Notes under the pieces: model-generated
What the model was told of the DNA's origin: nothing
What the model saw: the letters and a program-made list of their open reading frames with translations, nothing else
Database searches by the model: none
Assembly (NCBI GenBank): GCA_964607835.1
Contig: CAZSLL010000005.1
Span: 4,785 to 68,784 of the forward strand
DNA: 64,000 nucleotides
Source of the DNA: an uncultured archaeon
GTDB taxonomy: Archaea; Aenigmatarchaeota; Aenigmatarchaeia; QMZP01
Direction: 5' to 3'
Program-made: the position numbers and the translations under genes
Shown: positions 5,771 through 57,135 of the stretch, piece by piece
How the letters are laid out: every line of letters begins with the position of its first letter
Numbering within the stretch: position 1 is the first letter of the stretch

Positions 5771-5932
5771 TTTGGACGCCTGCCTGTCCAAAAAAGGTTC
5801 AGTTGCGGCAGCGGTCTTTTTCGGGAGCGTTTTTTGGACGCCTGCCTGTCCAAAAAAGGTTCAATTGCGGCAGCGGTCTTTTTCGGGAGCGTTTTTTGGA
5901 CGCCTGCCTGTCCAAAAAAGGTTCAAGCGGAG
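5771..5932. repeat. 62-bp tandem direct repeat, about 2.5 copies, each with a 10-bp-stem hairpin (TTTTTTGGAC/GTCCAAAAAA)
   Basis: The unit is tggacgcctgcctgtccaaaaaaggttcaNttgcggcagcggtctttttcgggagcgtttt. Copies start at 5773, 5835 and 5897. The unit resembles the 3' flank and intron region of the adjacent tRNA-Cys gene. Confidence 0.7.
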
Positions 5933-6167: not shown

Positions 6168-7112
6168 TTATTTGTTTGCAGAGAGCATTAAACTGCCTTC
6201 CCTGACAGCGTCCGAGTATTTCTTCAGGGCGGCATCGAAACTATCCCCCATCTCCAGGTATGACCTGATGCTCTCCACGCGCTCTACATAGTCATTGCAC
6301 TCTTTCTCATGCTTGCCCTTTCCGTTGGGTCCGGCGAAATAGCACTTGAGGGCCTCTTCCATGTCACCATCCTCATGAACCTCATAGTGCTTGAGAAGGG
6401 CCATGCCAGTCACAATGTTTGCGTAGGGGGATTCCCTCACCCTTTCCCAGACCTCCTCAGGGCCTCCCCCGAAGATATGGGCATACTTCTCAAGGGCATA
6501 CTCTCCTATTTCCTTTCTGGAATCATTGAATCTCTTTCCTTTGCCTGAGAAGAGCTCTCTCGTCTCGGCGCTTGAGACCTGGTTGAGCTGCATGTATCCG
6601 ACATTCCCTGTAATGGATTCAGCATCATGGTCTCCCCATGATTCCTTTCCTATCATTGCAAGAACGAGTTCAGGGTCGAGATTGAAATCACCTGCCACCT
6701 CATTCACGATACTCACGAAACCAGGTTCATCAGGTACGGTTGCAGCGCTCCTATAAGGCTCCGGCCCCGACCCCAGGTCTTCAGAGCTGAAGCCGGTCCT
6801 GGGGTTTATCATTGTTGGTTCAGGCACTAGGTCAGGGGCAGAGGCCGCCTTGGAAGGGTCAAAAGGAGGAGGCTCGTTCTCCTTCCAGGTTCCCTTTTGG
6901 CTCTCTTCCAGGAAATCCCTGTCCCTTTCATCGGCTTTACCTGGATGAGGCTGCCCAACATTCTCATAAGGATAATACATTGCATCAGCATCGTGGTCTC
7001 TCGGGATGCCAAAGAGGGCTGCAAGGCTCATGAATCCAGCAGCAGCTATCTCCACAGCGTATCTGGACACGAAGCCCCTTCCTTCACCAATCCCGGAGGT
7101 TTCTCTAGACAT
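6168..7112 (-). CDS. SLT-domain (lytic transglycosylase-like) protein with a low-complexity Pro/Glu-rich N-terminal region
   Basis: The C-terminal half contains the SLT motifs LVLAMIGKESWGD (catalytic Glu-Ser), GYMQLNQVSSAE and PYANIVTGMALLKHY...YFAGPNG. Confidence 0.5.
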   Translation of the reverse strand: MSRETSGIGEGRGFVSRYAVEIAAAGFMSLAALFGIPRDHDADAMYYPYENVGQPHPGKADERDRDFLEESQKGTWKENEPPPFDPSKAASAPDLVPEPTMINPRTGFSSEDLGSGPEPYRSAATVPDEPGFVSIVNEVAGDFNLDPELVLAMIGKESWGDHDAESITGNVGYMQLNQVSSAETRELFSGKGKRFNDSRKEIGEYALEKYAHIFGGGPEEVWERVRESPYANIVTGMALLKHYEVHEDGDMEEALKCYFAGPNGKGKHEKECNDYVERVESIRSYLEMGDSFDAALKKYSDAVREGSLMLSANK

Positions 7113-8602: not shown

Positions 8603-9481
8603 ATGGCTTTCGGCGCTTACAAGCGGCTCTCTGTGAGGGTTTTCGGAGGGTTCGCAAAGTCCTCTGAGAACAGCTTCAGGTCAATCGGGCCCTGGATGAA
8701 AGGGGCGGGCATCCACATGCTCGCAAGGACCTACATCTCCATGATTTACATGACCACTGTGCTGGCCTACATAGCGGGGCTGGCAACCGCGCTGGTTCTG
8801 AGCTCCCTTTTCGTGGAGGACCTGGTCATGATGGTGTACTACGTGACCTTCGGGCCTGTTCTCGGGGCCTCGGTTGTGTTCATGCTGCTGTATATATACC
8901 CGTCGAGCAGGTACAAGTCGGCCAGGAGGTCCATTGACAACAACCTCCCATTCGCGCTGATACACATGGACTCAATCTCCTCCTCAGGCATTCCAACGGA
9001 GTTTATGTTCGAGCTCCTGGGCAAACTGAAGGAATACGGGGAGATATCCAGGCAATCCAGACTGGTCATGAGGAACATAAAGACCTTTGGCATGAGCTCC
9101 ATAAGCGCTATCAACGACGTGGCAGAGAAGAGCCCGTCGCCTGCATTCAGGCAGGTCCTGACCGGAATCAGCTCCACGGTGGGGAAGGGAGGGAACCTCT
9201 CCGGTTACCTGAAGGAGATGAGCGAGAAGAACCTATTCGAGTACAGGATGAGTAGAGAGAAGTACGTCAAGACACTATCGACTTACGCGGACGTATACAC
9301 GGCTGTGCTGATAGCTGCCCCGCTCATGTTCCTTTCTGTGCTGGTCATGATGAACGTGATAGGGGGGGATGTGCTGGGAATGGCCATACCTGACTTCATA
9401 AATCTCATGACATATGTCATCGTGCCTGCCATGAACATCGGATTCCTGGCCTTCCTGCACACCAGCCACCCGGGAAGTTAA
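8603..9481 (+). CDS. FlaJ/TadC-like polytopic membrane protein (type IV pilus/archaellum assembly platform)
   Basis: The profile is multi-TM with a cytoplasmic domain between TM1 and TM2, typical of T2SS-F/FlaJ. It is convergent with the FlaI-like ATPase. I placed the start at the internal ATG (MAFGAYKRL). Confidence 0.6.
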   Translation: MAFGAYKRLSVRVFGGFAKSSENSFRSIGPWMKGAGIHMLARTYISMIYMTTVLAYIAGLATALVLSSLFVEDLVMMVYYVTFGPVLGASVVFMLLYIYPSSRYKSARRSIDNNLPFALIHMDSISSSGIPTEFMFELLGKLKEYGEISRQSRLVMRNIKTFGMSSISAINDVAEKSPSPAFRQVLTGISSTVGKGGNLSGYLKEMSEKNLFEYRMSREKYVKTLSTYADVYTAVLIAAPLMFLSVLVMMNVIGGDVLGMAIPDFINLMTYVIVPAMNIGFLAFLHTSHPGS

Positions 9482-9564
9482 AGCAATATCAGATTATTAC
9501 TTAATGCAGAACAGCATGCCAATGACAATAAGGAAGGCCAAACCCAGGAATGCGCAGCTCTGAA

Positions 9565-11481
9565 TCACTCTTTGGGATTTGCTTTCTTCTCCGCTTTCTG
9601 CGCGGGAGCTGCTGACTCCTCCGCTTTCTGCGCGGGAGGATTTGCTTTCTTCGGGGGTGACTCTTTTTCCTCCCCTCTCTTCGGGGGTGACTCTTTTTCC
9701 TCCCCTCTCTTCGGGGGTGACTGCTGTTTACTGGAAAGCTCAGACTCTGCCAGTTCCTCGTAGTCCTCGAGTACACCACTGATGCCATTTCTCCCGGGCT
9801 TATGCCTGGGCCTGGGCTTCTTCTTTGAGGCTGCCTCCTTGGCATGCTTCTCGGCATTCTCGGCCTTCTTAACCCTTTCCTTCTTGAATGGGGTTCTGTT
9901 CTCCCTGACCCATTTCATCACAGTAGGCTGGTCCTTGTAGTAGAGGTTGATAATCCTGCAAACGTCATGGAAGTACACAACAGAATGGGCCTGCATCCAT
10001 TCTATAACCTTCTTCCGCCTCTCGAGCTCTTCGCTCATCCTCCCGAAGGCCAGCCCCTCTTCAAATGATATCCTCTGGAGAATCTCAGAGCTGCCCGTGC
10101 TCTCCCTGTATACGTCCTCAGACGGAATCCAGGAGAATGACTCCTTGGTATGGGCCCGCCCTGTGTGGGAATCCACTGACTGGATTTCCACTATCCTCTT
10201 GACCCTTCTGGATGATTTGCCCTTCTCCTTTGCGTTGGTCATCACGACCATGGCGTCCAGGGCCTCCAGAAGGGAGGGCGAGAGCTCTATGGGAGGGGTA
10301 CTCAACCTCTTTATGACGTCTTCCACAGAGCCTGCGTGTATGGTGCCAAGCGAGGCGTGGCCCGAGGCCATTCCCTGGAACATGACGTAGGCCTCTTTTC
10401 CCCTGACCTCGCCCACCACAACGTATGACGGGTTCTGCCTGAAGGACTCTCTGAGAAGGTCGTAGAGCCCTATCTCCCCGTACCTTTTCCCGTTCGCCTC
10501 TGGCATACCGAAGCCCCTTCTGGATACCGATGGAATCCAGTTATCGTGGGGCAGGTTGATTTCCCTTGTGTCCTCGATAGAGATTATCTTGTCCTCGGGG
10601 GGTATGAACATGCTTATGGCGTTCAGGAAGGTGGTCTTTCCGGTGGAGACGCCCCCGCATATCATTATCGAGACATTGTACTGGCAGAGCAGCCAGAGAT
10701 AGGCAAGCATGGATGATGATACAGTGCCCATGTTTAGGAGGTCTATGGGCGAGAACGGGTGGCTCCTGAACTTCCTTATCGAGAAGCTCGGGCCCTTGGT
10801 GGTGACGTCCTTTGCCAGCGAGGCCTGCACCCTGGAGCCGTCCGGAAGGCTTCCGTCGAGCAGGGGAGACGCGTAGGATATGTACCTTCCGCACCTCTCA
10901 GCAATCTTGATTACCAGGTCAGAGAGGTAGTCATTGTCCCTGAAGGTAAGATTGGTCCTTATGGAGCCGAATACCTTATGAACCACGTATATCGGGCTTC
11001 CCACGCCGTTGCAGCCTATGTCCTCTATGTAGGGGTCGTGCATCAGGGGCTCTATCTCGTTGAGGCCTATGAAGTCACGGGCTATGTAGTACATCACCCT
11101 CTGGAAGGGCTTCCCGCCGAGGGTGAGGCCGAGCTCGTCAATGGCCTCCACGACCTTGCCCTGGAGATAGGACAGGGTCTTCTCGTCCTTCTGGAGGCTC
11201 TCCAGCTTGACGTCTATGACCTCCCTGAGGGCCTCCTCTATACTTGATATGGCCTTGTGCTCAGCAGGCCTGAGGCCAGGCTCCTCCAGGCTGTACAGAA
11301 GGGACTTCTCTTTCTGTGACCACTTTATCCTGGCGTGGGCATGGGGATCTATAAGGGGGTACCTTACATCAACCTTTGATGCGCTCTTGAATCCTGGTAT
11401 AACTACCAGCTTCTTGGGCTCCCTGAAGGAGAGAGGCTTATATCTCTTCTCGCTTTTCCTGAACAGACCCCTGAGCGCCAT
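9565..11481 (-). CDS. FlaI/VirB11/PilB-family secretion ATPase with a C-terminal Lys/Glu-rich repeat extension
   Basis: It has Walker A GGVSTGKTTFLNA, the Asp and His boxes, and Walker B VVVGEVRG. The C-terminus carries repeats (SPPKRGEEKESPPKRGEEKE...APAQKAE) encoded by the dispersed DNA repeats. Confidence 0.8.
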   Translation of the reverse strand: MALRGLFRKSEKRYKPLSFREPKKLVVIPGFKSASKVDVRYPLIDPHAHARIKWSQKEKSLLYSLEEPGLRPAEHKAISSIEEALREVIDVKLESLQKDEKTLSYLQGKVVEAIDELGLTLGGKPFQRVMYYIARDFIGLNEIEPLMHDPYIEDIGCNGVGSPIYVVHKVFGSIRTNLTFRDNDYLSDLVIKIAERCGRYISYASPLLDGSLPDGSRVQASLAKDVTTKGPSFSIRKFRSHPFSPIDLLNMGTVSSSMLAYLWLLCQYNVSIMICGGVSTGKTTFLNAISMFIPPEDKIISIEDTREINLPHDNWIPSVSRRGFGMPEANGKRYGEIGLYDLLRESFRQNPSYVVVGEVRGKEAYVMFQGMASGHASLGTIHAGSVEDVIKRLSTPPIELSPSLLEALDAMVVMTNAKEKGKSSRRVKRIVEIQSVDSHTGRAHTKESFSWIPSEDVYRESTGSSEILQRISFEEGLAFGRMSEELERRKKVIEWMQAHSVVYFHDVCRIINLYYKDQPTVMKWVRENRTPFKKERVKKAENAEKHAKEAASKKKPRPRHKPGRNGISGVLEDYEELAESELSSKQQSPPKRGEEKESPPKRGEEKESPPKKANPPAQKAEESAAPAQKAEKKANPKE

Positions 11482-11518
11482 GTATATTAATTGTCCAGGC
11501 CAGTTAAAATTAGTTCAC

Positions 11519-12211
11519 TCATCTCATTTTCATGAGGGCCTCTTCGTCCGGGTAGACCTCTATGCCCTTTCCTGTTATCCTGTAGGGGTGAAGCTTCTCT
11601 GAGTGATTGGAGCCCCTGACCTTCCACACCTGGATTGCCCTTGAGAATGCTGACTGAATCCTCTCGTAGTAGAGCACCACGACGCTGTCTGTCACGAACT
11701 CCTCCACACCGTAGCGTGATATGCCCCGTGTGCCGGGAACTATCTCGCTCACCAGGAGGGAGGTGCAGCCGAGCTTCCTGAGTATCATGGAGAGGTCGAA
11801 TATCATTTTCCTGAGCTCTGAGTCATCCTTTACGTGAAGCCCCAGGGCTGAGATGGAATCCACCACCACCCTCTTTGCCTTGACCTCCCTTACCTTTGAC
11901 TCCAGGATGTCGAAAACCTCCTCTATGTGGTAAGGGTCGTACTTGATGAAAGCAAAATCCCCGCTCTTCTCCAGGGAGGCCAGGTCCCAGCCGAACTCCT
12001 TGACGTTCTCCTTTATGGCTTCAGCGGGCTCCTCGAAGGAGAGGTACACGCCCTTCTCCTTGAACTTTCTGATTCCCTCGTATATGAACTGGGTGCAGAA
12101 AGTGGTCTTTCCCGTTCCGCTCGTGCCAGTGATGAGTGCCAGCTGCGCCTGGGGTATGCCTCCGCCCAGAATCTTGTCCATGCCCGGTATTCCGGTCTTT
12201 AGCTTGTCCAT
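11519..12211 (-). CDS. KaiC/RecA-superfamily ATPase (FlaH-like)
   Basis: It has Walker A GTSGTGKTTF and a KaiC-like fold signature (GIPGMDKILGGGIP). It sits directly upstream of, and co-directional with, the FlaI-like gene. Confidence 0.7.
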   Translation of the reverse strand: MDKLKTGIPGMDKILGGGIPQAQLALITGTSGTGKTTFCTQFIYEGIRKFKEKGVYLSFEEPAEAIKENVKEFGWDLASLEKSGDFAFIKYDPYHIEEVFDILESKVREVKAKRVVVDSISALGLHVKDDSELRKMIFDLSMILRKLGCTSLLVSEIVPGTRGISRYGVEEFVTDSVVVLYYERIQSAFSRAIQVWKVRGSNHSEKLHPYRITGKGIEVYPDEEALMKMR

Positions 12212-12265
12212 CTTGACACTGTATATAATTGCACGCCGGGTTAAAAATAACACCAGCGGGAGGCA

Positions 12266-12634
12266 TCATCCAATTATCCTGCCAATCTTCTTCGCAGACC
12301 TCTCCATGTTCATGAGAACAAGGCCGATGTTGACCTTGGGCTTCACGAGCACAGTGAGGATGACGTCAGGGGTGGCCCCTATGGACACAAGCTTCCCGTT
12401 TGCAGACTCCACGACGACCTGGATGAACTTTCCTATGCTAAGCTCGTTGCTGGCTGTTTCTCCTGTCCCCACTATGGCCGCGGTCATGGCTGCCACTGCC
12501 TTTGAGTTCACGTCCTCGGGAAGGCTGGACAAAACCATGAGGCCGTCCCTTCTGACCACCGCGGCCCCCTTTATGTCAGCAGCTGACTGGAGCTCGTCCA
12601 GAAGAGCCTTCAGTTCCTCTTCCTTGGTTGACAT
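12266..12634 (-). CDS. Roadblock/LC7-domain protein (MglB-like)
   Basis: 122 aa with a Roadblock/LC7-like pattern (GAAVVRRDGLMVLSSLPED...AAMTAAIVGTGE). Confidence 0.7.
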   Translation of the reverse strand: MSTKEEELKALLDELQSAADIKGAAVVRRDGLMVLSSLPEDVNSKAVAAMTAAIVGTGETASNELSIGKFIQVVVESANGKLVSIGATPDVILTVLVKPKVNIGLVLMNMERSAKKIGRIIG

Positions 12635-12646
12635 TGCATGACCTCC

Positions 12647-13813
12647 TCATATCTCCCATTTCTGCCTCTTGAGCACTATGTCAAAGAGCTTGTCAAGTGC
12701 CTTGTCTGTCCCTTTATTCTTCACGGCAACAATGCCAACAGCGGGATAGCCAAGCTCCTTCTCTATCTTTTTAGGGGACAACGCCCCCTTCATGTCCTGT
12801 TTGTTGGCCAGGACAAGAACAGGTATGCCCTTTGACTTTATCTTCCTGAGCATCTGCTTTGCCCTCTTTATGCTATCGGGCTGGGTGGAGTCCACCACCA
12901 GGAGAATGCCCAGCGTGCTCTTGGAGAGCATCTGGAGGGTCCAGTCAAACCTCTCCTGCCCGGGGGTGCCAAACAGGTCCACTGACATGCCCTTCTTTTC
13001 CACGTGACCGTGGTCCAGGGCTATGGTGGTGCCCATCCTGTCTATGCTAACAGGCCTCTGGGAAAGGGCCTTCACCACAGAGGACTTGCCAGCGTGGAAG
13101 GGGCCTGTCACGAGTATCTTCGGGATGTACATGGAAATGCCCGAAGGCGTTATCTCAAAGGGTATGGCGAACTTGAGCCTTGGCTTATGAACATAAAGCT
13201 GCTTGAGCACGAGTCCCTTGCTGTCAAAGGCCTTGAGCCATATCACATAATCAAAGCACTTGGCGAATCGCTGTATGTTGCTTGGCTTGAAGCCTATGTT
13301 GGCCATCAGGTAATATGAGATTGTCCTGGTGTCCCTGAGGTCCTTCTCAGTGTCCTTCAGGAACCTTTCCACATCGCTCCAGTGGCCTACCCAGAAATCC
13401 AGGGAATCGAACACAGCAGTGGTGCCATACCCCTTCATGCTCTTCAGGGCATTCCTGAAGACCTTCTTGGACTTCTCTATGTAAGGCCTTACGTTTATGG
13501 TCTTCTCATCTATCGAGTAGCTCTCCCTGCTCTTCCTTCCCAGGCTGTAGGATATGCCGTCTATGAAGGACATCTTGCTGCTGAACCTCTGCCAGCCGGA
13601 TATGTTCTGCTTTATGTAGTCAGGGGTCTTGTTGTTGATGAAGTATATGCCGTTGTCCCCCTCCTTCAGCCTGCTCGCCATGATGCTTATGCCGAACATG
13701 GCCTTGTCCACGAGCATGTCTGATATGACCAGGACCCTGGAGCCGTCCTCGAATCCGCCGTCAAAGAACTCATCGAGCTTGGGAATCGTGGTGGAGACTT
13801 TCATATGGCTCAT
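12647..13813 (-). CDS. Fusion of a degenerate KaiC-like domain (no P-loop) with a small Ras-superfamily, MglA-like GTPase
   Basis: The C-terminal 150 aa have G1 GPFHAGKSS, G3 DLFGTPGQE and G4 NKQD. The N-terminal domain is KaiC/RecA-like but lacks Walker A. Confidence 0.65.
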   Translation of the reverse strand: MSHMKVSTTIPKLDEFFDGGFEDGSRVLVISDMLVDKAMFGISIMASRLKEGDNGIYFINNKTPDYIKQNISGWQRFSSKMSFIDGISYSLGRKSRESYSIDEKTINVRPYIEKSKKVFRNALKSMKGYGTTAVFDSLDFWVGHWSDVERFLKDTEKDLRDTRTISYYLMANIGFKPSNIQRFAKCFDYVIWLKAFDSKGLVLKQLYVHKPRLKFAIPFEITPSGISMYIPKILVTGPFHAGKSSVVKALSQRPVSIDRMGTTIALDHGHVEKKGMSVDLFGTPGQERFDWTLQMLSKSTLGILLVVDSTQPDSIKRAKQMLRKIKSKGIPVLVLANKQDMKGALSPKKIEKELGYPAVGIVAVKNKGTDKALDKLFDIVLKRQKWEI

Positions 13814-13904
13814 TGATTAATTGTCGGGCCGGTCTTAAATACATTCGAGGGGGCCATTTTTCAGGGTATGATTTATAATGAATCGAGACGAATAATATCA
13901 TAGT

Positions 13905-14600
13905 ATGAAGAGCGCGACAGGAATTAAGAAGCTGGACGCCCTGCTTAAGGGGGGGTTCCCTGACAACTCCACCATACTGGTGAGGGGCGCCACAGGAACC
14001 GGCAAGTCAACGCTCTGTCAGCAGTTCATAAGGTCAGGCCTGAATACCTCCCAGCCCGCTGTTTACATAACCCTTGACACCTCCCCGGAGGACATACTCG
14101 AGAACATGAAGAGGTTCGGCGGGGGAATGGAGAAGTTCCTCACCAAAAAGGGAATGGTTTTCCTTGATGCTTATTCATGGAAAACGGGTGGGGGGAAGGA
14201 TGAGGACTGGAAGAGGGTTCTGAGGGGAGGGCTTGACATAAACAGCATAAATGTCATGCTCTCTGACATACTCAGGGAGCTAGACAGGGATGGCAAGAGG
14301 AGCGTTTTCGACTCAGTCTCAACGCTACTGCTCTACATACCCGTGGAGCTGGTGGTCAGGTTCATCCCAATCCTCATAGCAAAGTGCAAGCAGGCAAAAT
14401 CAACCCAGGTCCTCATACTCGAGGAGGGTGTCCACGACAAGGAAATCGTCAACACCATGGCATATCTCTCAGACGGGGTGATAGAAATGAAGCAGGAGGG
14501 CAACAAGAAAATGCTCAGGGTCAGCAAGATGAAGGGAATCTCCTGCACCAGGGACTGGATGGATTACGACATCAAGGAATCAGGCCTTGAGATTGCCTGA
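13905..14600 (+). CDS. KaiC/RecA-superfamily ATPase
   Basis: It has Walker A GATGTGKSTL and a KaiC-like architecture. It is divergent from the GTPase gene. Confidence 0.7.
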   Translation: MKSATGIKKLDALLKGGFPDNSTILVRGATGTGKSTLCQQFIRSGLNTSQPAVYITLDTSPEDILENMKRFGGGMEKFLTKKGMVFLDAYSWKTGGGKDEDWKRVLRGGLDINSINVMLSDILRELDRDGKRSVFDSVSTLLLYIPVELVVRFIPILIAKCKQAKSTQVLILEEGVHDKEIVNTMAYLSDGVIEMKQEGNKKMLRVSKMKGISCTRDWMDYDIKESGLEIA

Positions 14601-14975
14601 AAGCCGGCATGCCATGTTATAAATAAAAGACTTACCCGCTGAACAGTCAGTAATATTCACATCATGCTCCATAAGCAGAAAGCAATTCACCATACATGAG
14701 CCAAAGACTGGTTTGGTTCATTCCCAGGGAAACGGGCAATGGAAAGCCTCTGGCTTCTCGCAGCCCTGGACATATTGGCAATGGCTTTTTTGGCGATTAA
14801 CCTTTTCTCAGGAGGTCTCGCATGTTCAGAAAAGAGTACATCGGGGGTTTCCAGGTCGAGAGATGGACTGACAGGCTTTGCAGAAAGGCGAGGGACATCT
14901 CGAGCAGCATTGCTGAATTTTTCAGGAGGTTCAGGGTGTAGGCAGTGCTGAAAGGAGAAACCTTAAGCTTTCTTT

Positions 14976-14997
14976 AACCTTTTCAGGGAACCCAGGG
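14976..14997. promoter_or_regulatory. Perfect inverted repeat GGGAACCC-a-GGGTTCCC, about 160 bp upstream of aRF1
   Basis: I see an 8-bp palindromic arm pair directly in the sequence. This is a candidate transcription-factor site. Confidence 0.3.
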
Positions 14998-15158
14998 TTC
15001 CCGCATTGCTCTGTCAAATAAGAGGGATATTTATCAGAATCCCAATCTTTATAAGCAGGGAAACCAAATGCAGTAACATTCAAGCCACTCCTGGTTACGC
15101 GTCGGATTGCATTGCACTGGAGTGTGTGCAGGCGCCCGAGGCGCCTGAAGGAGAGAAT

Positions 15159-16373: not shown

Positions 16374-19300
16374 TTAAGAGGAGCCCCAATTGCTCTTTAG
16401 GTTCTCCCACGTGAGTTCCTGGTTGTTCCTTTTGAAGTAGTACCAGAGCACCAGGACAACCGCCAGTATGACAATCCCTATCAGTGAGAGTAACCACCAG
16501 GGAAAGCCCCCGCCGTCTTGCGGTGTGGACTGATCCCCGCAGCCCTCGTCTATCTGGCCGTCGCAGTCGTTATCTATGCCGTCCCCGCAAATCTCTGTGG
16601 AGGGGAATATCGCACCCACGCAGTCGCTCCACTGGCCGTCCACGCATGTGGATGAGCCCAGGGCGCAGACCCCCATATTGGACTCCCCGCAGGGCTTTGT
16701 TTCGCCCTCGCTGATGCACTCGCAGCCATTGTTGACCGTGCCATCACAGTCATCGTCCCTGGAGTTTCCGCAGTCCTCTGTGGCCATGGGGAAGATTGCT
16801 CCCTCGCAACGGGTCCATTCCCCGTTAATACAGTCCCTGGAGCCGAACTCGCATATGCCGTAATCAGTGTCAGGGCCGCATGGGGAACCGGAAAGGTCCT
16901 CGTCAACCTCCCCGTCGCAGTCGTCGTCAAGGCTGTTGCAGGCCTCTTCCTCAGGGAGCTGGCCTCCCTCGCATCCCCCCCACATGCCGCTGGGAAGGCA
17001 TGTCCTGTTCCCAGTTCCCCTGCATATCCCCTGACCGTATGCCACCCCGCCGTCTTCTGGGTTGCAGGGCCTGACGTCGCCTGGCTCGCACTCTATGACC
17101 GAGAAGTTGAACGTGCTCTCCCCTGTGTTCTGGTTGACGTCTGTCCTCACTATGGAGAATCCGGTCTTGTCCACGTAGGTCTCGTAGGGAATCTCCCAGG
17201 AAAGGGTCCACTGGGTATCCCCGCTGGAGCCTGTCCTCTGAACCGGCTCCACTTCCTCATCCCCCATCAACAGGGAGACGTGGTCGATTCCTGACTCGTC
17301 GCTCACAATGGCGTTCACAAGCATGGGCTGGTAGTCTGATGATGCCACCTTCTTCGAGTACTGCGGCTCGTCATTGTCAATCTCAGGGGCCTTCGAGTCT
17401 ATGCGGGTGCCCACAATATCTGACCAGTCGCCCTTGTTGCCTGCCATGTCAAAGGCCTGGCAGGAGAAGTAATATGTACTGTTGTGCAGGCCCGTGAAGA
17501 GCCTTGAGGGCTCCTCGATGTCTGTCCAGCCCGAGGTGGGAGAAGTGCAGGGAGAGGGCTCTGATTTTATGCAGAGATCGTATTCCTTTATTCCTGAGCC
17601 AGTGTCCTGGCCTGACCAGTTGAGCATGAACGTGGTCTTGTTAACCACAGGGGGGAGGCTGGAAATATCACAGGAAGGCGGGAACGAGTCGATGACAAAA
17701 TCCTTGGTGTCAGCCTGGCTTGGGTTACCAGCCAGGTCAAAGCCGATCAGGGTAAAGGAGTATTCTCCTCCCTCTGCGCCTTCATACTCGAGGGATTTAA
17801 CCGACCCTCCGAGATGCCGGTAAAATTCACCATCAAGCCTGACGACATAGTAATCCATTCCCATGTCTTCCTGGGCCTCCCATGTGAGAGTGAAATTGCC
17901 CTGATTACTGTATCCAGTGTCGCTTCCTGTGAAAGAGACAACCGGCGGAACCGTGTCAAGTCCCATTGAGTGCATGCCTATAGAGGACGTAACGGTATTC
18001 CCGCTCCTGTCATAAGTTGCCTCGCATTCGAACCTGTACAAACCGTCATCATCCAGGGTAACGTCGCGTGTGGTCTGGGACTCTTCATTAATCGTGAATG
18101 AGTCAACGAACTCCTGGTAGGTGGAGCCACCGTCAAGGCTCCTCTTTGCCTGTATGCTGTATTCCACGAATGTGCTTCCTGAAACCGGGTCTTCGGAAAC
18201 CCACTCAAGCGTTGTTGTGGTCTTGTTGTTGTATTCAGGAAGATTTACAAACTCGCAGGTCGGAAGGTTCCTGTCAATAGTCACATGAAGGGATTTGTGG
18301 CCTTCCTCGTTGCCCACGTAATCCACTGAGTAGAACTCTGTGTAGTAATCGCATGTTTCCCCGTCCGGACAGTCAGAGCCAACGGTGACAGGGTCAGAAT
18401 ACTGCTCAAAACCAGAGCATTGGGTTGCGTCCCTGGCGTGGCACAAAAGGGTTTCAGCCACACCCGATCCCGCGTCCTGCGCGCTAAGCTTGATTACGAA
18501 CTCCTTTCCAACCGTTGTCCCGTCCCCCGGGCAGTCAACGCATGTTGTCTCGGGAGGTTCGGAGTCCCCCCATGTGCCTGAACTGCAGTAGCCCACGTCC
18601 TGGAGTGAGCTTCCGTCGCTATAGCATACGCCGCTGAAGACGCAGCTTCCCTCAGAAGGGCAGCATGAGATGTCATCAGTGCTCTCAGAGCAGACGCCTG
18701 TTCCGGCGTCAATGCAGTAGGAAAGGAATTCATCGCTGTCGTCCCCGCAGCAGCAGTCTGTCTGGTCGCCATCGTCAATGGGGTCGCAGTCGATACCGCC
18801 CGGGCCCCATGCATCGGCCCCCTCTGTGCACTGGCAGGCTTCCTGGTGCTTGTCCATATCAAAGTCGTCTGAGCTCGAAAGGCACATCTGCGAACTGTCC
18901 AGGCATTCGCCCACGAACTCGTACTGGTCATCGCCGCAGCAGCAGGAGGACTGGTCGCCGGACTCATCAGGGTCGCAGTCTATTCCGCCGATGCTCCATT
19001 TTCCCTGGCCGTGTCCGCACTCGCACCAGCCCTGTTCTGAGTCAAAGTCCACGAAATATCCCTCTACCGGTTCGGGGCCAAGCACTTCATAGGTGTTGTC
19101 AGTGAAAAAAACCTTCAGGGTTCCGTTGTACTGGCCCTCGTCAGGGCAGAAGGTGTAGCCTAGGCTGGTTGAGAATACAAAGGGGTCTTCGAGGGTAAGG
19201 CATGTGCCAGAGGTCTCGATATCAAGGTCTATTTCATTGCTGGTGGAGCCTTGGGCTGATATGAGTGTAAGGGTCATGCTGTCAACATCGCACACCTCGC

Positions 19301-19433
19301 ATGGGTCATCAGGAGTCCCCTCGCAGTCAGCGAAATCTGAAATCACGACACCGGATAGTGAGGAAAGAGCGATGGCGATGGATATCAAAGAAAGCATCGT
19401 GAGTGTTCGAATGCTCATAACATATATTTGCAT
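16374..19433 (-). CDS. Large Cys-rich cell-surface protein with internal repeats, MopE-like metal-binding motifs and a C-terminal TM anchor
   Basis: It has a signal peptide and a repeated module GGIDCDPxDxGDQxxCCCGDDxxEF. Four C-terminal repeats carry CxxxDDDCDG. A TM helix (WWLLSLIGIVILAVVLVLWYYF) lies near the C-terminus. Confidence 0.6.
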   Translation of the reverse strand: MQIYVMSIRTLTMLSLISIAIALSSLSGVVISDFADCEGTPDDPCEVCDVDSMTLTLISAQGSTSNEIDLDIETSGTCLTLEDPFVFSTSLGYTFCPDEGQYNGTLKVFFTDNTYEVLGPEPVEGYFVDFDSEQGWCECGHGQGKWSIGGIDCDPDESGDQSSCCCGDDQYEFVGECLDSSQMCLSSSDDFDMDKHQEACQCTEGADAWGPGGIDCDPIDDGDQTDCCCGDDSDEFLSYCIDAGTGVCSESTDDISCCPSEGSCVFSGVCYSDGSSLQDVGYCSSGTWGDSEPPETTCVDCPGDGTTVGKEFVIKLSAQDAGSGVAETLLCHARDATQCSGFEQYSDPVTVGSDCPDGETCDYYTEFYSVDYVGNEEGHKSLHVTIDRNLPTCEFVNLPEYNNKTTTTLEWVSEDPVSGSTFVEYSIQAKRSLDGGSTYQEFVDSFTINEESQTTRDVTLDDDGLYRFECEATYDRSGNTVTSSIGMHSMGLDTVPPVVSFTGSDTGYSNQGNFTLTWEAQEDMGMDYYVVRLDGEFYRHLGGSVKSLEYEGAEGGEYSFTLIGFDLAGNPSQADTKDFVIDSFPPSCDISSLPPVVNKTTFMLNWSGQDTGSGIKEYDLCIKSEPSPCTSPTSGWTDIEEPSRLFTGLHNSTYYFSCQAFDMAGNKGDWSDIVGTRIDSKAPEIDNDEPQYSKKVASSDYQPMLVNAIVSDESGIDHVSLLMGDEEVEPVQRTGSSGDTQWTLSWEIPYETYVDKTGFSIVRTDVNQNTGESTFNFSVIECEPGDVRPCNPEDGGVAYGQGICRGTGNRTCLPSGMWGGCEGGQLPEEEACNSLDDDCDGEVDEDLSGSPCGPDTDYGICEFGSRDCINGEWTRCEGAIFPMATEDCGNSRDDDCDGTVNNGCECISEGETKPCGESNMGVCALGSSTCVDGQWSDCVGAIFPSTEICGDGIDNDCDGQIDEGCGDQSTPQDGGGFPWWLLSLIGIVILAVVLVLWYYFKRNNQELTWENLKSNWGSS

Positions 19434-30903: not shown

Positions 30904-31048
30904 GCGGGAGTGTCCGAGCGGTCAAAGGGGCAAGGTTGAGGGCCTTGTGGCTTAGAACCCTTTTACAGGAGCCAAAGCGTCCGCAAAAGCGTTCGCGGAA
31001 AACCCGTAAAGGGGTAAGCAATGCCTTCGCAGGTTCGAATCCTGTCTC
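30904..31048 (+). tRNA. tRNA-Leu(GAG) with an insertion of about 66 nt in the variable arm that carries the conserved core
   Basis: The folded parts are acceptor GCGGGAG/CTCCCGC plus A, a class-II D-arm (GAGCGGTCAAA), anticodon stem CAAGG/CCTTG with loop TTGAGGG, and an intact T-arm GCAGG-TTCGAAT-CCTGT. The insert is AGAACCCTTTTACAGG...CCGCAAAAGCGTTCGCGGAAAACCCG.... Confidence 0.6.
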
Positions 31049-31115
31049 CCGCATTACACCTTTCTTTACAGGAGGTCACGACCTTCCTCAAGAAAGCCGT
31101 GGGAAAGAAATAATA

Positions 31116-38231: not shown

Positions 38232-39047
38232 ATGGCACTGCAGAGGATGACGGCAAGGAAGGCCAGGATTTCTGACATAGTCAACGGCAGCTGGGTGAAG
38301 AGGGAGGGTATGGAGCCCAGCTTCGTGATTACCGGCTCGGGCGAGAAGATATCAAGGGCCAGGGTCATGGGAACCATAGTGTCTGACTTCTTCGCAGAGG
38401 ACGGGAATTTCGGAAGCGTGACCCTGGATGACGGCACAGACACCATGAGGGCCAAGACATTCAAGACCGTAAAGCCCCTGGATTCATTCAGGCCCGGGGA
38501 CACCGTGGACATGGTAGGCAAGGTAAGGGAGTACAACGGGGAGATTTACATTATTCCTGAGGTCATCGCAAAGGTTCAGGACCCAAACATGGAGCTCCTC
38601 AGGAGGCTCGAGCTCATAAGCAAGGCCAGAAACCCTCCCCCGAAGAGAGGGGAGGATTCAGGAGAGCCCCCGAAGAGAGGGGAGCAGACTGGCAGCCCTT
38701 CCGCACAGGAAGCCGGCCCAGGAGCAGGGCAGTCCTTTGTCCAGGGTCAGGAGACAGGCCAGGCAACTCCTCCGCAGGCAGAGCAAGCAACACCTTCAGA
38801 AGAAAAGACTGGTTCCACCAAGGAGGAGGACAAGGCAAAAGAGGAGCAGAGGAAGAAAGAGGAGGAGGACTCCAGGATAAGGAAGGACATCCTCTCGGTC
38901 ATAGAGTCCAACCCAGAGGGGGTGGAGTACGGCGAGATAAGCCAGAAGGTGCAGGCCGAGGAGTCCAGGATAGAGAGCGTGCTCAACGACATCCTTGCAG
39001 AGGGCATATGCTACGAGCCCACCCCAGGGAAAGTCAAGAAGATCTAG
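38232..39047 (+). CDS. RPA-like OB-fold ssDNA-binding protein with a C-terminal winged-helix domain and a PPKRGE-repeat linker
   Basis: OB-fold segment (VMGTIVSDFF...GEIYIIPEVIAK), a low-complexity linker containing PPKRGEDSGEPPKRGEQTG, and a C-terminal wH-like domain (RPA32-like architecture). Confidence 0.55.
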   Translation: MALQRMTARKARISDIVNGSWVKREGMEPSFVITGSGEKISRARVMGTIVSDFFAEDGNFGSVTLDDGTDTMRAKTFKTVKPLDSFRPGDTVDMVGKVREYNGEIYIIPEVIAKVQDPNMELLRRLELISKARNPPPKRGEDSGEPPKRGEQTGSPSAQEAGPGAGQSFVQGQETGQATPPQAEQATPSEEKTGSTKEEDKAKEEQRKKEEEDSRIRKDILSVIESNPEGVEYGEISQKVQAEESRIESVLNDILAEGICYEPTPGKVKKI

Positions 39048-43990: not shown

Positions 43991-44995
43991 TTATCTTGCG
44001 CCCTCTGCTTCCTTCTCTATCCTGTTCCTCTCGGACACGGAGAAGCTCTTGGAGTCGTTGTTGTAGGCGGCTATGAGCTCCTCTGCTATGACCTGGGACA
44101 GGCTCTTTGTCTTCCTGAACGAGGCCCTGTATATGCCCTGGGAAAGGTGCCTGAGGGCTATGTCCAGCCTTCTCTGGGGAGAGGCGATTACAGAGTTCCT
44201 GGCTATTATGCCACCCAGCCTGTAGGATGCAACCTCCTCGAGCAGGGCGGCGTTCTCAATGGCCCCCACAAGGACCTGGACCGGGTTCTGCTTGGTCCTC
44301 TTCTCTATGAGAATGAATGCCTCTTTCATGCTGTTGTAGAGCCTGGGGGTCTTGCCCACGTTGTTTCCTGAGGTAATCTTGTGCTTCTTGCCCCTGTGGC
44401 CGGCCACCATGAGCTTGTTCATGAACCTCTCGATTACCGAAATCTTTCTTTTCTGGATGCTGTCCCTGTTGTACCTCCCGCCGGTCCTTGGCACAGCAAG
44501 GGTGTCCAGGTTCATGTACTTCTTCAGGCCGGCATCTTTAAGGGCAACGTCAGAGGTGTCCCATCTGTTGAAAAGGAGCATCCTCACACCATGCTGTCTC
44601 AGGAGGGAGACCCTCTCTTCTGTTTGCTCCCCTCTCTTCGGGGGAGACTCTGTTTGCTCCCCTCTCTGCGCGGGGGGCTTCTCTTTCATCTCCGCTTTCT
44701 GCGCGGGGGGCTTCTCTTTCATCTCCGCTTTCTGCGCGGGGGGCTTCTCTTTCATCTCCGCTTTCTGCGCGGGGGCTGATGACTGCTCCGCTTTCTGCGC
44801 GGGCCTTGCATCAGGCTTCCTGTCCTCATTCTTCTCAGGAGAGGGCTTCTTCACCTGAGGCTTTTCCTCGGGTGGTTTTGCCGGGGGTTTCTCATTAACA
44901 TGCTGTGCCTCAGTCTTTGCATGGTCAGCCTTGCCTGTGCTGGCATTGGCCTTGTCCTCTTCAGGGGGCTTTGCCCCGGTCTTCTCCTCAGTCAT
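43991..44995 (-). CDS. rps7: Ribosomal protein uS7 with a long N-terminal Lys/Glu-rich repeat extension of about 150 aa
   Basis: The C-terminal 190 aa are S7 (NSMKEAFILIEKRTKQNPVQVLVGAIENA...). The N-terminus contains three copies of KPPAQKAEMKE and also SPPKRGEQTE. Confidence 0.85.
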   Translation of the reverse strand: MTEEKTGAKPPEEDKANASTGKADHAKTEAQHVNEKPPAKPPEEKPQVKKPSPEKNEDRKPDARPAQKAEQSSAPAQKAEMKEKPPAQKAEMKEKPPAQKAEMKEKPPAQRGEQTESPPKRGEQTEERVSLLRQHGVRMLLFNRWDTSDVALKDAGLKKYMNLDTLAVPRTGGRYNRDSIQKRKISVIERFMNKLMVAGHRGKKHKITSGNNVGKTPRLYNSMKEAFILIEKRTKQNPVQVLVGAIENAALLEEVASYRLGGIIARNSVIASPQRRLDIALRHLSQGIYRASFRKTKSLSQVIAEELIAAYNNDSKSFSVSERNRIEKEAEGAR

Positions 44996-49633: not shown

Positions 49634-50233
49634 TCACTTTTTCTCTTTCAGCTCCGCTTTCTGCGCGGGGGCTGCTGACTCCTCCGCTTTCTGCGCGGGG
49701 GCTGCTGACTCCTCCGCTTTCTGCGCGGGGGGCTTCTCTGTTTTCCTCTCCCCTCTCTTCGGGGGAGACTCTTTCTGCTCCCCTCTCTTCGGGGGAGACT
49801 CTGTCTGCTCCCCTCTCTTCGGGGGAGACTTTTCAGAGCGCTCCAGTATGGCCTGCCTCTTCTTGTCATCCAGCTTGAGCTTCGTTATCATTATGTTCGA
49901 GGGCTGCAGCGGCATGTGCACCTCTGAGCCGTCGCTCTTCTTGGTTTTGAGCTCCTCCACGTATACCCTGCTCTTCCCAACATCGACCCGGTCAACGGTC
50001 CCGAGCTTCTTCCTGAGGGAGCCCCTGAGGACCTTTACCTCGTCTCCCTTGCGAACCCGCATGGACCTCCTGCTGTAGCGCTTCCTGAGCTCAGGGGACA
50101 GGTGCACGGAGAGGAAGGACTGCCTCACATGGGACGGGGCGTTGAGCCTGTATTTCCTCTGCTTCCTGGGCTGGACGCTCGCCAGCCAGCTCTTTGACCA
50201 GTTCTTAATCATGCCTATCTTCCTCTCCTTCAC
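49634..50233 (-). CDS. rpl24: Ribosomal protein uL24 with a C-terminal repeat extension
   Basis: The KOW region is VRKGDEVKVLRGSLRKKLGTV. The C-terminus has three copies of SPPKRGEQxE and three of APAQKAEES. Confidence 0.8.
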   Translation of the reverse strand: MKERKIGMIKNWSKSWLASVQPRKQRKYRLNAPSHVRQSFLSVHLSPELRKRYSRRSMRVRKGDEVKVLRGSLRKKLGTVDRVDVGKSRVYVEELKTKKSDGSEVHMPLQPSNIMITKLKLDDKKRQAILERSEKSPPKRGEQTESPPKRGEQKESPPKRGERKTEKPPAQKAEESAAPAQKAEESAAPAQKAELKEKK

Positions 50234-52585: not shown

Positions 52586-53572
52586 TCACTCCTTCTCGGT
52601 TTCCTTTGGAGGCTTATCCTCTTCCTTCTTCTCTGCGGGCTTTTCCCCTGACTCCTCCTTCTTGGGCCCGGGTTTCTTTTCATCGGGCTTATTTTCCGGT
52701 ATCTCTTTCACAGGCCCATCTTTTCCGGCTTCTTTGGGCTTCTCCTCCAACTCCGCTTTCTGCGCGGGGGCTGATGACTCCTCCGCTTTCTTTACGGGTT
52801 TTCCCTCTTTCTTTTCCGAATCCTTTTCTGGCTTCTTCCCGGACTCTTCCTTCTTGGCAGGGGAAGGCTTTTCTGCTCCCTTCTCTGTCTGCTCCCCTCT
52901 CTTCGGGGGAGACTCTGTCTGCTCCCCTCTCTTCGGGGGAGACTCTTTTTCCTTGTCCTCCCCGCTCACGTCAATCCTGTGCTCCACCTTGTCCCTTATC
53001 TCGCCTGTGATGTCCTGGAACTTGCTCATTATCTTGACCTTGACCCCAATCTTTCCCGGCCTGGTCTGGGCCTCCTCGAAGCCTGAGTCCACCAGGGTCC
53101 TGGCTGGCTCGCCGCAGTGCTTGAGATAGCCCTCCTGGAACTTGCCCACCACGCCCTTTCCGCCGCCCAGCTTGCCGGATATCACTATCTGGGCACCTAT
53201 GGCGCCTGAGTTCATGATTCTCTTCATGGTGAGGTTCCCTATTTTCTTGTAGTTGTACCCCTTCTCCAGGGCGGAGGAAATCTGCTTGGCAACTATCCTA
53301 GAGTCGAGGTTGGGGTTCTTTATGACCTTGACGTCCAGCTGGGGGTTGTCCAGGCCAAACCTCAGCTTGATGGCCTCGGTCATGTCATTGATGTTCTTGC
53401 CGCCCTTGCCGATTATCCTTCCGGGCTTGTTAGTGTAAATGAGAATCTTGAGCCCCAGGGGAGTCCTCTGGAGTTCGGTCTTGGAGTAGTCCCCAAGCGG
53501 GAACTTCTTCCTTATGAACTCGTCTATCTGGGCCTCCTTTATTCCCTGGTTGATGAAGAAATCCTTAATCAT
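52586..53572 (-). CDS. rps3: Ribosomal protein uS3 with a long C-terminal repeat extension
   Basis: It has a KH domain (GRIIGKGGKNIND) and the S3 C-domain. The C-terminal 120 aa contain KESPPKRGEQTESPPKRGEQTE and SSAPAQKAE. Confidence 0.85.
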   Translation of the reverse strand: MIKDFFINQGIKEAQIDEFIRKKFPLGDYSKTELQRTPLGLKILIYTNKPGRIIGKGGKNINDMTEAIKLRFGLDNPQLDVKVIKNPNLDSRIVAKQISSALEKGYNYKKIGNLTMKRIMNSGAIGAQIVISGKLGGGKGVVGKFQEGYLKHCGEPARTLVDSGFEEAQTRPGKIGVKVKIMSKFQDITGEIRDKVEHRIDVSGEDKEKESPPKRGEQTESPPKRGEQTEKGAEKPSPAKKEESGKKPEKDSEKKEGKPVKKAEESSAPAQKAELEEKPKEAGKDGPVKEIPENKPDEKKPGPKKEESGEKPAEKKEEDKPPKETEKE

Positions 53573-56268: not shown

Positions 56269-57135
56269 TTATTGCAGAATATGGCTGAGCTTTATTGCAT
56301 CAGGATTTTTCCTGAGCTTCCTTTTGGCCTTCTCAATCTTCTGCCTAACAGCCTCGCCGCTATCCAGGTATTTCTCGGCAATTTCCCTGGGCCTAAGCTT
56401 ATTGAACACATTCTCCTCGAAATATACCCTCTCCCATGTGTCCAGTGACGAGAGTATATTATCGCAGAGCCCCGCCATCTGCTCTTTCGCCGCCTCATCT
56501 TCTGGCAGGCTGTCTACTGAAGGCACAAAGTCTATAAGCGAAGCATCGCTTTCAGGAAAAGAGGCATCAAGGCTAAGGTAGTATGGATGGCCCGCATTGT
56601 TGCGCATCAGCTCAAGCTCATAAAGGCTGAATGTGGCGTCAATCTCTCTCTGGATTTCCTCTGCATTCTCAGGGATTCTCTGCATATCCTCGAGCATACC
56701 CAGATACCTGCGAATCCTTTTCTGGAGAATTGGCCCGATCCTGTATGCCCCCCTGTTGTCTGTGATATAGCTGAATATTTTAAATCTTATCCAAGAGGTA
56801 AGATATGTGCTCGGCATTAAGCCCCTTTCGGGCTCGTATTTCTCCAGGCCCCTCAGAAGCCCCATGTTTCCCTCCTGAACGAGATCCATTAACGGGAACC
56901 CGGGCCCAGAATACATTCCTGCAACCTGCCTGACCATCCTCTGGCATCCCTCGACAAGCTCTTCCCTGGCTTTGCTGGCAGACTCTTTGTCACCGTTTTT
57001 CATGGCAAAGTGAACCGAATCAAAGGCTTGCTTGTCAAAATAGAGCCTTCCCGAGAAATCTGCCTCCTTGCTGTAATGATACTCAGTGTCATCGGTATGG
57101 AAAGGCCCTGTATAGGGCTTGCTTCTCTGTTTCAT
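56269..57135 (-). CDS. Sigma-70-family RNA polymerase sigma factor-like protein (regions 2, 3 and 4)
   Basis: Region 2 is MDLVQEGNMGLLRGLEKYEPERGLMPSTYLTSWIRFKI (compare DLIQEGNIGLMKAV.KF...STYATWWIR). A region-3-like segment is SLDASFPESDASLIDFV. Region 4.2 is ...KLRPREIAEKYLDSGEAVRQKIEKAKRKLRK. It lies directly upstream of, and co-directional with, S13-S4-S11. Confidence 0.7.
   Translation of the reverse strand: MKQRSKPYTGPFHTDDTEYHYSKEADFSGRLYFDKQAFDSVHFAMKNGDKESASKAREELVEGCQRMVRQVAGMYSGPGFPLMDLVQEGNMGLLRGLEKYEPERGLMPSTYLTSWIRFKIFSYITDNRGAYRIGPILQKRIRRYLGMLEDMQRIPENAEEIQREIDATFSLYELELMRNNAGHPYYLSLDASFPESDASLIDFVPSVDSLPEDEAAKEQMAGLCDNILSSLDTWERVYFEENVFNKLRPREIAEKYLDSGEAVRQKIEKAKRKLRKNPDAIKLSHILQ

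Follow-up and report, generated by a model that had tools for sequence, protein, structure and literature searches.

A conserved KaiC/G-protein gene module beside a type IV pilus motor in an uncultured aenigmatarchaeon and its possible role as a pilus regulator

DPANN archaea (named after Diapherotrites, Parvarchaeota, Aenigmarchaeota, Nanoarchaeota and Nanohaloarchaeota) depend on physical contact with their hosts, for which pili are the prime candidates. To our knowledge, the way in which these pili are switched on has not been described. Could a small GTPase be part of the switch? This question is raised by a six-gene locus in a 64,000-nucleotide stretch of contig CAZSLL010000005.1 (assembly GCA_964607835.1) from an uncultured archaeon of the Aenigmatarchaeota; the whole stretch is referred to below as the window. 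The locus offers a concrete hypothesis, namely a GTPase and its GTPase-activating protein (GAP) tethered to a pilus ATPase via KaiC-type domains.

On the minus strand, in the order of transcription, the locus encodes a fusion of an inactivated KaiC domain (iKaiC) to an MglA-type GTPase, a Roadblock/LC7 (MglB-like) protein, a KaiC-like ATPase (KaiC_A) and a pilus ATPase, with successive gaps of 12, 12 and 37 bp (Table 1). We infer that these four genes form one transcription unit in this DPANN lineage. The gene of a TadC/TadB-like platform protein converges on the ATPase gene, and the gene of a second KaiC-like ATPase (KaiC_B) diverges from the fusion gene. The list of open reading frames (ORFs) and the Pfam profile searches agreed with an earlier reading, made from the letters of the window alone (the sequence-only reading), on the content of the six genes, their coordinates, order, strands and domains. 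Because the whole block was found again in eight related contigs, the arrangement is not due to chance. An exact-sequence database look-up of the window protein returned no record.

Two modules can be distinguished in the locus. The first is a widely conserved archaeal unit made up of the iKaiC-MglA fusion, its Roadblock/MglB-like partner and one or two single-domain KaiC-like ATPases. The second is a minimal type IV pilus motor, consisting of a Tad/GspE-type ATPase and a half-size TadC platform protein. On balance, we lean toward the view that the first, a general KaiC/G-protein signaling module, is coupled to the pilus motor in this lineage as a regulator, and the best reading of the gene neighborhoods is that such an attachment arose independently in at least one other lineage.

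The fusion protein and its Roadblock partner

The C-terminal domain of the fusion carries the GTPase motifs G1 (GPFHAGKS), G2 (GTT), G3 (GTPGQ) and G4 (NKQD). In an alignment of 43 homologues, G1 (as GPxxAGKS), G2 and G3 are invariant, and so are both threonines, T262 and T263. G3, in the context LFGTPGQERF, has lost the universal aspartate, while G2, in the context RMGTTIALDHG, shows a Thr-Thr pair and no intrinsic arginine finger of the Group 1 type. Both features belong to Groups 2-5 of the MglA family, for which Wuichet and Sogaard-Andersen (2014, PMC4316618) described GTPGQ in G3 and a threonine where Group 1 has its arginine finger. These authors also reported archaeal members without the bacterial insertion between G1 and G2. 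The window GTPase does not have it either: 18 residues separate GKS from TT, and the alignment to a myxobacterial MglA-type protein shows window-side gaps of 9 and 3 residues. With a myxobacterial TVPGQ-type GTPase the domain shares 29% identity (E 7e-13).

Arf ranked first for the domain in both the Pfam and the PDB profile searches, and its nearest unfused relatives are stand-alone archaeal GTPases of 160-177 amino acids (aa) with the same motifs. Together with the motifs of MglA Groups 2-5, this ranking supports the MglA/Arf affinities named in the sequence-only reading. The domain is therefore classified here as a putative MglA-type GTPase, a membership that rests on its motifs and on its coupling to an mglB-like (Roadblock) gene across the first 12-bp gap. 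From the single-domain plan of MglA the protein departs in being 388 aa long and carrying an N-terminal KaiC-fold domain of ~225 aa.

In nanohaloarchaeal homologues of the fusion (e.g. P0037 and P0053), NFQN takes the place of the guanine-specificity motif NKQD, reminiscent of the NxFD motif in MglA Group 2 of actinobacteria (cf. PMC4316618). These members may have an altered nucleotide specificity.

The Roadblock protein scored 53.6 bits with Robl_LC7 (Pfam cut-off 23). Its PDB matches were the Roadblock/LC7-domain proteins 9jue, 7f8m and 7yh1 (~1e-15), followed by CvnB5 (2e-6) and MglB (0.035). The translation reads RRDGL at the place of the Asp-Gly pair, which was described for the MglB partners of MglA Groups 2-5 (Wuichet 2014, PMC4316618). 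By analogy with MglB, the protein is presumed to be a regulator (GAP) of the fused GTPase.

In the KaiC domain of the fusion, the Walker A motif GxxGxGK[ST] is replaced by SDMLVDKA and the catalytic EE by NK. An AlphaFold2 model built on the 43 homologues (mean predicted local distance difference test, pLDDT, 86.5; predicted template modeling score, pTM, 0.80) shows a complete KaiC/RecA fold from residue 1 to ~225, the last beta-strands of which pass directly, without any linker, into the first strand of the GTPase, so that the two domains are rigidly joined in the model. The top Foldseek match of the model is the hexameric ATPase PH0284 (E 3e-16, template modeling score 0.77-0.81). The label pseudo-KaiC, given from the sequence, proved apt, as the Walker A and EE motifs are degenerate and the fold is kept. 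Since both motifs are lost, the domain should neither bind nor hydrolyze ATP. BLASTP comparisons gave a stronger match to KaiC_B (27% identity, 9e-11) than to KaiC_A (1e-4), which suggests that the domain originated by duplication of a KaiC_B-like neighbor.

Several known systems resemble this protein pair in part. The MglA/MglB pair of Myxococcus xanthus and Thermus thermophilus (Group 1) likewise consists of a Ras-superfamily GTPase without the G3 aspartate and an adjacent gene for a Roadblock-fold partner, and a passage of PMC7519303 states that MglA-GTP stimulates type IV pilus formation in Myxococcus. Unlike bacterial Group 1 MglA, the window GTPase combines GTPGQ and TT with the absence of both the intrinsic arginine finger and the insertion; it is fused to iKaiC, its partners are KaiC-like ATPases and not RomR, RomX or SgmX, and the pilus motor genes share its putative operon. 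Archaeal Group 4 MglA (PMC4316618) comes closer, with GTPGQ, TT, no insertion, an adjacent Roadblock gene and members in the Methanosarcinales. Group 4 was, however, described as single-domain, found almost only in methanogenic Euryarchaeota and without conserved neighbors, whereas the present family is fused to iKaiC, is abundant in DPANN archaea, has conserved KaiC neighbors and, in one clade, a pilus motor beside it. The archaeal MglA group is thereby extended beyond the single-domain, neighbor-less and methanogen-restricted picture of 2014. The conservon CvnA-D of Streptomyces (MglA Group 2) also unites a GTPGQ-type GTPase, a Roadblock protein and an ATP-dependent signaling enzyme in one operon (PMC4316618), but there the enzyme is a histidine kinase and not KaiC, the GTPase is unfused, and the system is bacterial and has no pilus link.

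The pilus motor and the KaiC-like ATPases

The combination of a VirB11/T2SSE ATPase and a T2SSF platform protein, by which a type IV pilus system (Tad-like) is recognized, is present at the locus: the ATPase scored 114 bits with T2SSE (Pfam cut-off 24.9) and the platform protein 39.5 bits with T2SSF (cut-off 25.2). The sequence-only reading had named these proteins FlaI and FlaJ and had called the KaiC-like protein FlaH-like, in the sense of an archaellum-like machine. An archaellum-like rotary core (ArlH/ArlI/ArlJ) with a G-protein add-on would be built from the three protein superfamilies found here, in a comparable neighborhood, and FlaI and ArlJ were indeed the top NCBIfam names. Like ArlH-ArlI-ArlJ, the locus has a KaiC-like protein beside a hexameric ATPase of the FlaI superfamily and a polytopic T2SSF platform, and the archaellum provides a precedent for the docking of such a KaiC-like protein on the ATPase.

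The labels themselves could not be upheld. With the NCBIfam FlaI model the ATPase reached 374 bits (cut-off 550), and its PDB matches place GspE of A. fulgidus (2oap, 2e-107) ahead of FlaI (1e-79) and CpaF (8e-41). The platform protein scored 83 bits with ArlJ (cut-off 550), over profile positions 6-246 of 555 only; it aligns with the first half alone of the ArlJ and UpsF models, far under their cut-offs. Given its single T2SSF domain and a size kept at 290-292 aa in the relatives L001, L013-L015 and L094, it is predicted to be a half-size platform protein of the TadB/TadC style. KaiC_A and KaiC_B scored 45.8 and 53.5 bits with ArlH/FlaH (cut-off 215). In the PDB profile search KaiC_A matched the CI domain of KaiC (3e-77) and PH0284 (2e-50), and no FlaH structure at 1e-5 or better. 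Both KaiC-like proteins were therefore rejected as FlaH/ArlH orthologues. KaiC_A has an intact Walker A motif (GTSGTGKT) and an intact catalytic EE; in the translation of KaiC_B, Walker A (GATGTGKS) is intact and EE is changed to DT. They also differ from bona fide circadian KaiC, which has tandem CI and CII domains and KaiB/KaiA partners: each has a single domain, and no gene of the locus looks KaiB-like.

Genes for the remaining parts of such a machine were sought by a scan for class III signal peptides in all ORFs of the window from every start codon, and by Pfam searches of ~39 ORFs, which did not include every small ORF. The signal scan gave internal or membrane-protein false positives only, and neither archaellins nor ArlF/G, ArlC/D/E or ArlX were found in the window by these two approaches, in agreement with the earlier statement that archaellin and FlaF/FlaG genes are lacking. 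Seven components are common to all archaellated archaea (PMC4858521). On the curated cut-offs and the missing components the archaellum reading was rejected; with no filament or stator genes present and a platform of half the ArlJ length, we regard it as hardly credible. Pilins and a prepilin peptidase may be encoded elsewhere in the genome, as is often the case for archaeal pilins (PMC4858521).

No paralogue of TadC or of the pilus ATPase was found in the window, and the additional matches to FlaI derive from a shared low-complexity tail. In the pilus ATPase this C-terminal tail comprises ~110 aa, is rich in K, E, P and A and is composed of 30-bp repeats. Two such units recur with identical DNA sequence in the genes of at least five unrelated proteins, where they encode peptides similar to PAQKAEES and SPPKRGEEKE: besides the pilus ATPase (C-terminal tail), the hosts are an RPA-like protein, S7 (N-terminal extension), L24 and S3 (C-terminal tails). 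There were 11 and 12 matches, compared with 0.04-0.06 expected. The repeats look like a low-complexity cassette spreading between genes via recombination.

A hydrophobic micro-ORF of 23 aa, whose GTG start overlaps the stop codon of the ATPase gene, was also considered. It is unlikely to be conserved, because the gap between the ATPase and TadC genes is just 14 bp in L001 and 3 bp in L015.

Distribution of the fusion and its linkage to the pilus motor

A database search with the fusion revealed 1,804 homologues at E<=1e-3, and an exhaustive search (E<=1e-30) gave 81 clusters at 50% identity. The members with a named source belong to Nanohaloarchaeota, Aenigmatarchaeota and Micrarchaeota; others belong to Methanosarcinales, including the anaerobic methanotrophic archaea ANME-2c and Methanoperedens. 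All are annotated generically, as 'GTP-binding protein', 'ATPase domain-containing protein' or 'KaiC'. The locus thus draws attention to a large family without functional annotation, spread over DPANN and Methanosarcinales including ANME-2 and Methanoperedens.

Gene neighborhoods were surveyed at 89 loci, and counts were taken from the 27 well-flanked ones (at least 3 kb on either side). Of these 27 loci, 24 have a Roadblock gene no more than 1.5 kb from the fusion, 21 (ANME-2c and Methanoperedens included) a KaiC-like gene within 3 kb and four a pilus ATPase gene within 6 kb. The neighboring KaiC-like protein matches KaiC_B best and, less often, KaiC_A. From these counts, the conserved core consists of the fusion and the Roadblock protein, usually with KaiC, and the pilus motor stands outside it.

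Among close relatives (60-78% identity), the pilus linkage is present in all eight that have downstream sequence, and the check for conservation of the cluster in relatives, asked for in the sequence-only reading, thus came out positive. Seven of them share 72-78% identity (L001-L003, L013-L015 and L017). In the eighth, L094 (60%), the pilus block is present despite a different right flank and the insertion of a V4R-domain gene after the Roadblock gene. The module of L095 (50% identity) is without pilus genes. A V4R gene, of a small-molecule-binding type, follows the Roadblock gene both in L094 (7677-8756) and in L095 (9593-10261), and its product is a candidate for a ligand-sensing input to the GTPase module.

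A second type of linkage was found in L081 (39% identity). Here a large surface protein, four pilins, T2SSE, two half-size T2SSF proteins, the fusion, a small membrane protein and the Roadblock protein are encoded in this order, all on the same strand, and the four pilins have textbook class III signal peptides. Small genes beside the module in the Aenigmatarchaeota locus L010 were also considered as pilin genes and were rejected, as they encode membrane proteins with multiple transmembrane segments.

Several observations weigh against a regulatory tie between the module and the pilus motor. In the window itself, the TadC gene lies outside the operon and is transcribed convergently, and neither the class III signal scan nor the Pfam searches of ~39 ORFs detected genes for a pilin, archaellin, FlaF/G or prepilin peptidase (peptidase A24) in the 64 kb. 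Among the 23 well-flanked loci below 45% identity, 22 have no pilus ATPase gene within 6 kb; a linkage of 1/23 is about the rate expected by chance for a genome of ~1 Mb with few pilus loci. On nanohaloarchaeal and aenigmatarchaeal contigs of 120-940 kb, the fusion/Roadblock pair stands beside unrelated genes, such as those for small membrane proteins, V4R, RuBisCO, Nre and a helicase. The aRF1 flank on the left is also syntenic within the clade, and part of the block conservation may therefore be plain collinearity. All this would be expected if the two modules were neighbors only, that is, if a general signaling or cell-biology module (serving e.g. membrane remodeling, division or stress) simply had a KaiC-associated pilus ATPase as its neighbor in a genome that is compact and collinear. 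The lack of conserved neighbors reported for archaeal Group 4 MglA (Wuichet 2014, PMC4316618) points in the same direction.

We nevertheless consider mere adjacency somewhat unlikely. The genes are tightly spaced and co-directional, and the gap between KaiC_A and the pilus ATPase is 0 bp in three relatives (L001, L002 and L015). The block has outlasted the change of the right flank and the insertion of a gene in L094, and the fusion and Roadblock genes of L081 are independently embedded, on the same strand, in a full pilin operon. These three observations argue for a real coupling, which also fits the published loci: the type IV pilus loci of archaea often include KaiC ATPases and Roadblock proteins of arCOG02603 (Makarova, Koonin and Albers 2016, PMC4858521), with single-domain KaiC-like ATPases co-transcribed with a VirB11-family ATPase and TadC, and Tad clusters with two kaiC genes were reported in metagenome-assembled genomes of Nanohaloarchaeota (Xie et al. 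2022, PMC9563170). In Haloferax, the KaiC-like protein CirA was implicated together with ArlI and ArlJ in the regulation of pilin-mediated motility, according to a passage of PMC10983859.

A third possibility is that the ATPase/TadC pair does not build an adhesive pilus and instead powers another process of the type IV filament kind, e.g. uptake of DNA, secretion of proteins or a bindosome-like assembly of surface binding proteins, with the GTPase module in control. It is in line with the lack of pilin genes in the class III signal scan of the window, with the large Cys-rich surface protein that is a syntenic neighbor and with the proposal that DPANN pili import DNA or nutrients (PMC9563170). 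The matches of the ATPase to the bindosome model BasE and of TadC to BasF are weak, however (NCBIfam scores of 193 with a cut-off of 1000 and 35 with a cut-off of 1300), archaeal pilins are often encoded elsewhere (PMC4858521), and four canonical pilin genes accompany the module in L081. We judge this function quite improbable.

If the module does regulate the pilus motor, the following mechanism can be pictured. The intact G1-G4 motifs suggest that the GTPase domain would alternate between GTP and GDP states. The Roadblock protein, presumably a dimer, could act as GAP or guanine nucleotide exchange factor (GEF), like MglB for MglA, in view of its homology and its near-universal adjacency. The iKaiC domain might dock the fusion on KaiC_B or KaiC_A, either inserted into their rings or stacked on them, which its paralogy and its hexameric PH0284-like fold would allow. 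From the operon structure, KaiC_A may bind the hexamer of the pilus ATPase in the way that ArlH of the archaellum binds ArlI, so that the nucleotide state of the G protein would gate assembly or placement of the pilus. Homology and gene context suggest each of these steps; the identities, motifs, KaiC inactivation and conservation were computed here.

In this full form, in which the iKaiC-MglA fusion, the Roadblock protein and the KaiC-like ATPases make up a composite ATP/GTP switch docked on the pilus ATPase that sets when or where the pilus is built, the proposal is tentative and in our opinion rather unlikely. If it held true, no earlier case of an archaeal surface machine under G-protein control would exist, and the switch would mirror the MglA/MglB control of bacterial pili; this would suggest that the connection between GTPase, Roadblock protein and pilus is ancient and not a myxobacterial invention, and the switch could govern host attachment in host-dependent DPANN cells. 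Of the GTPase-regulated pilus or archaellum-like machine proposed from the sequence, the co-location of a pilus motor with a GTPase module stands; the archaellum type does not, nor does a dedicated pilus regulator, in view of the 22 of 23 distant loci without a pilus ATPase.

The iKaiC domain, together with the concept of KaiC as a 'signal transduction hub', was reportedly introduced by Makarova et al. in 2017 (mBio 8:e01959-17). MglA/MglB pairs, archaeal Group 4 MglA, iKaiC domains and pilus loci associated with KaiC or Roadblock proteins are all known kinds, and a passage of PMC5847659 cites inactivated KaiC domains fused to signaling domains. What appears new, in that it was not found in the searched literature, is the iKaiC-MglA family, its conserved KaiC neighbors and a small GTPase within an archaeal pilus operon. 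Neither an iKaiC-GTPase fusion nor a small GTPase in archaeal pilus loci was described in the full-text literature that was searched, which did not cover Makarova et al. 2017, where the fusion may be listed. The earlier impression that nothing of this kind had been described in archaea appears to hold for the fusion and for the GTPase in a pilus operon, and has to be given up for KaiC and Roadblock genes in pilus loci and for Tad clusters with two kaiC genes, which are published.

Layout of the locus and other features of the window

The coordinates of the six genes, of the putative promoter elements (read from the sequence alone) and of the additional features discussed in the text are collected in Table 1.

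Table 1. Positions of the genes of the locus and of further features in the 64-kb window
Feature	Position	Strand	Remarks
TadC/TadB-like platform gene	8603-9481	+	292 aa; Pfam T2SSF 6e-10, residues 122-244; ~four predicted transmembrane helices
Hydrophobic micro-ORF	9497-9568	-	MIQSCAFLGLAFLIVIGMLFCIK; unlikely to be conserved
Pilus ATPase gene	9565-11481	-	638 aa; Pfam T2SSE 6e-33
KaiC_A	11519-12253	-	244 aa; Pfam KaiC 9e-73; directly upstream of the pilus ATPase
Roadblock/LC7 (MglB-like) gene	12266-12634	-	122 aa; Pfam Robl_LC7 2e-14
iKaiC-GTPase fusion gene	12647-13813	-	388 aa; Pfam KaiC, residues 6-114 (2e-6); Arf/Ras, residues 232-367 (4e-14)
Fusion, inactivated KaiC domain	~13139-13813	-	boundary approximate
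Fusion, putative MglA-type GTPase domain	~12647-13138	-	boundary approximate
Divergent intergenic region, fusion/KaiC_B	13814-13904		91 bp; TATA-like box ~20-35 nt 5' of either start codon
Putative TATA-like box for fusion	13834-13842		CTTAAATAC; minus strand TATTTAAG
Putative TATA-like box for KaiC_B	13871-13878		TTTATAAT
KaiC_B	13905-14600	+	231 aa; Pfam KaiC 7e-38
30-bp coding repeats	9591-9720, 38634-38698, 44629-44803, 49652-49834, 52753-52946		two units, DNA-identical
62-bp tandem repeat	5771-5926		2.5 copies, 98% identity
SLT-domain protein gene	6168-7112	-	Pfam 2e-9
Region between KaiC_B and aRF1	14601-15158		~550 bp; likely aRF1 start Met at 15159
Cys-rich surface protein gene	16374-19433	-	1,019 aa
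tRNA gene	30904-31053	+	150 nt; Rfam 39.8 bits
Sigma-70 region 2 protein gene	56269-57135	-	288 aa; Pfam 5e-16

Between KaiC_B and aRF1, the window contains a region without a convincing ORF, for which the Rfam search gave no match at E<=1. The spacing between the two genes is 14-43 bp in L001, L002 and L094. The aRF1 proteins of L001 and L094 comprise 903-920 aa, and for L094 an intein is annotated.

The Cys-rich surface protein has a signal peptide, fn3/Big_7 domains, MopE-type metal-binding motifs (DDDCDG) and a C-terminal membrane anchor. Its homologue is a syntenic neighbor in L001 and L002, and it is possibly an adhesin alongside the pilus.

The genes surrounding the locus are archaeal housekeeping genes, encoding S26e, S6e, S7, S3, S4e, L24, EF-1alpha, aRF1, RtcB, NFACT, a Rad50-like and an RPA-like protein. 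Amid these archaeal genes lies one for a protein with a bacterial Sigma-70 region 2. A lytic transglycosylase SLT domain, of a peptidoglycan-cleaving type, was also detected in this archaeon, and the protein might act on a bacterial partner or prey. Between its gene and that of an ArsA-like ATPase there is a 62-bp tandem repeat, where the long overlapping ORFs look spurious. Finally, one tRNA, presumably intron-containing, was recognized by Rfam and missed by ARAGORN.

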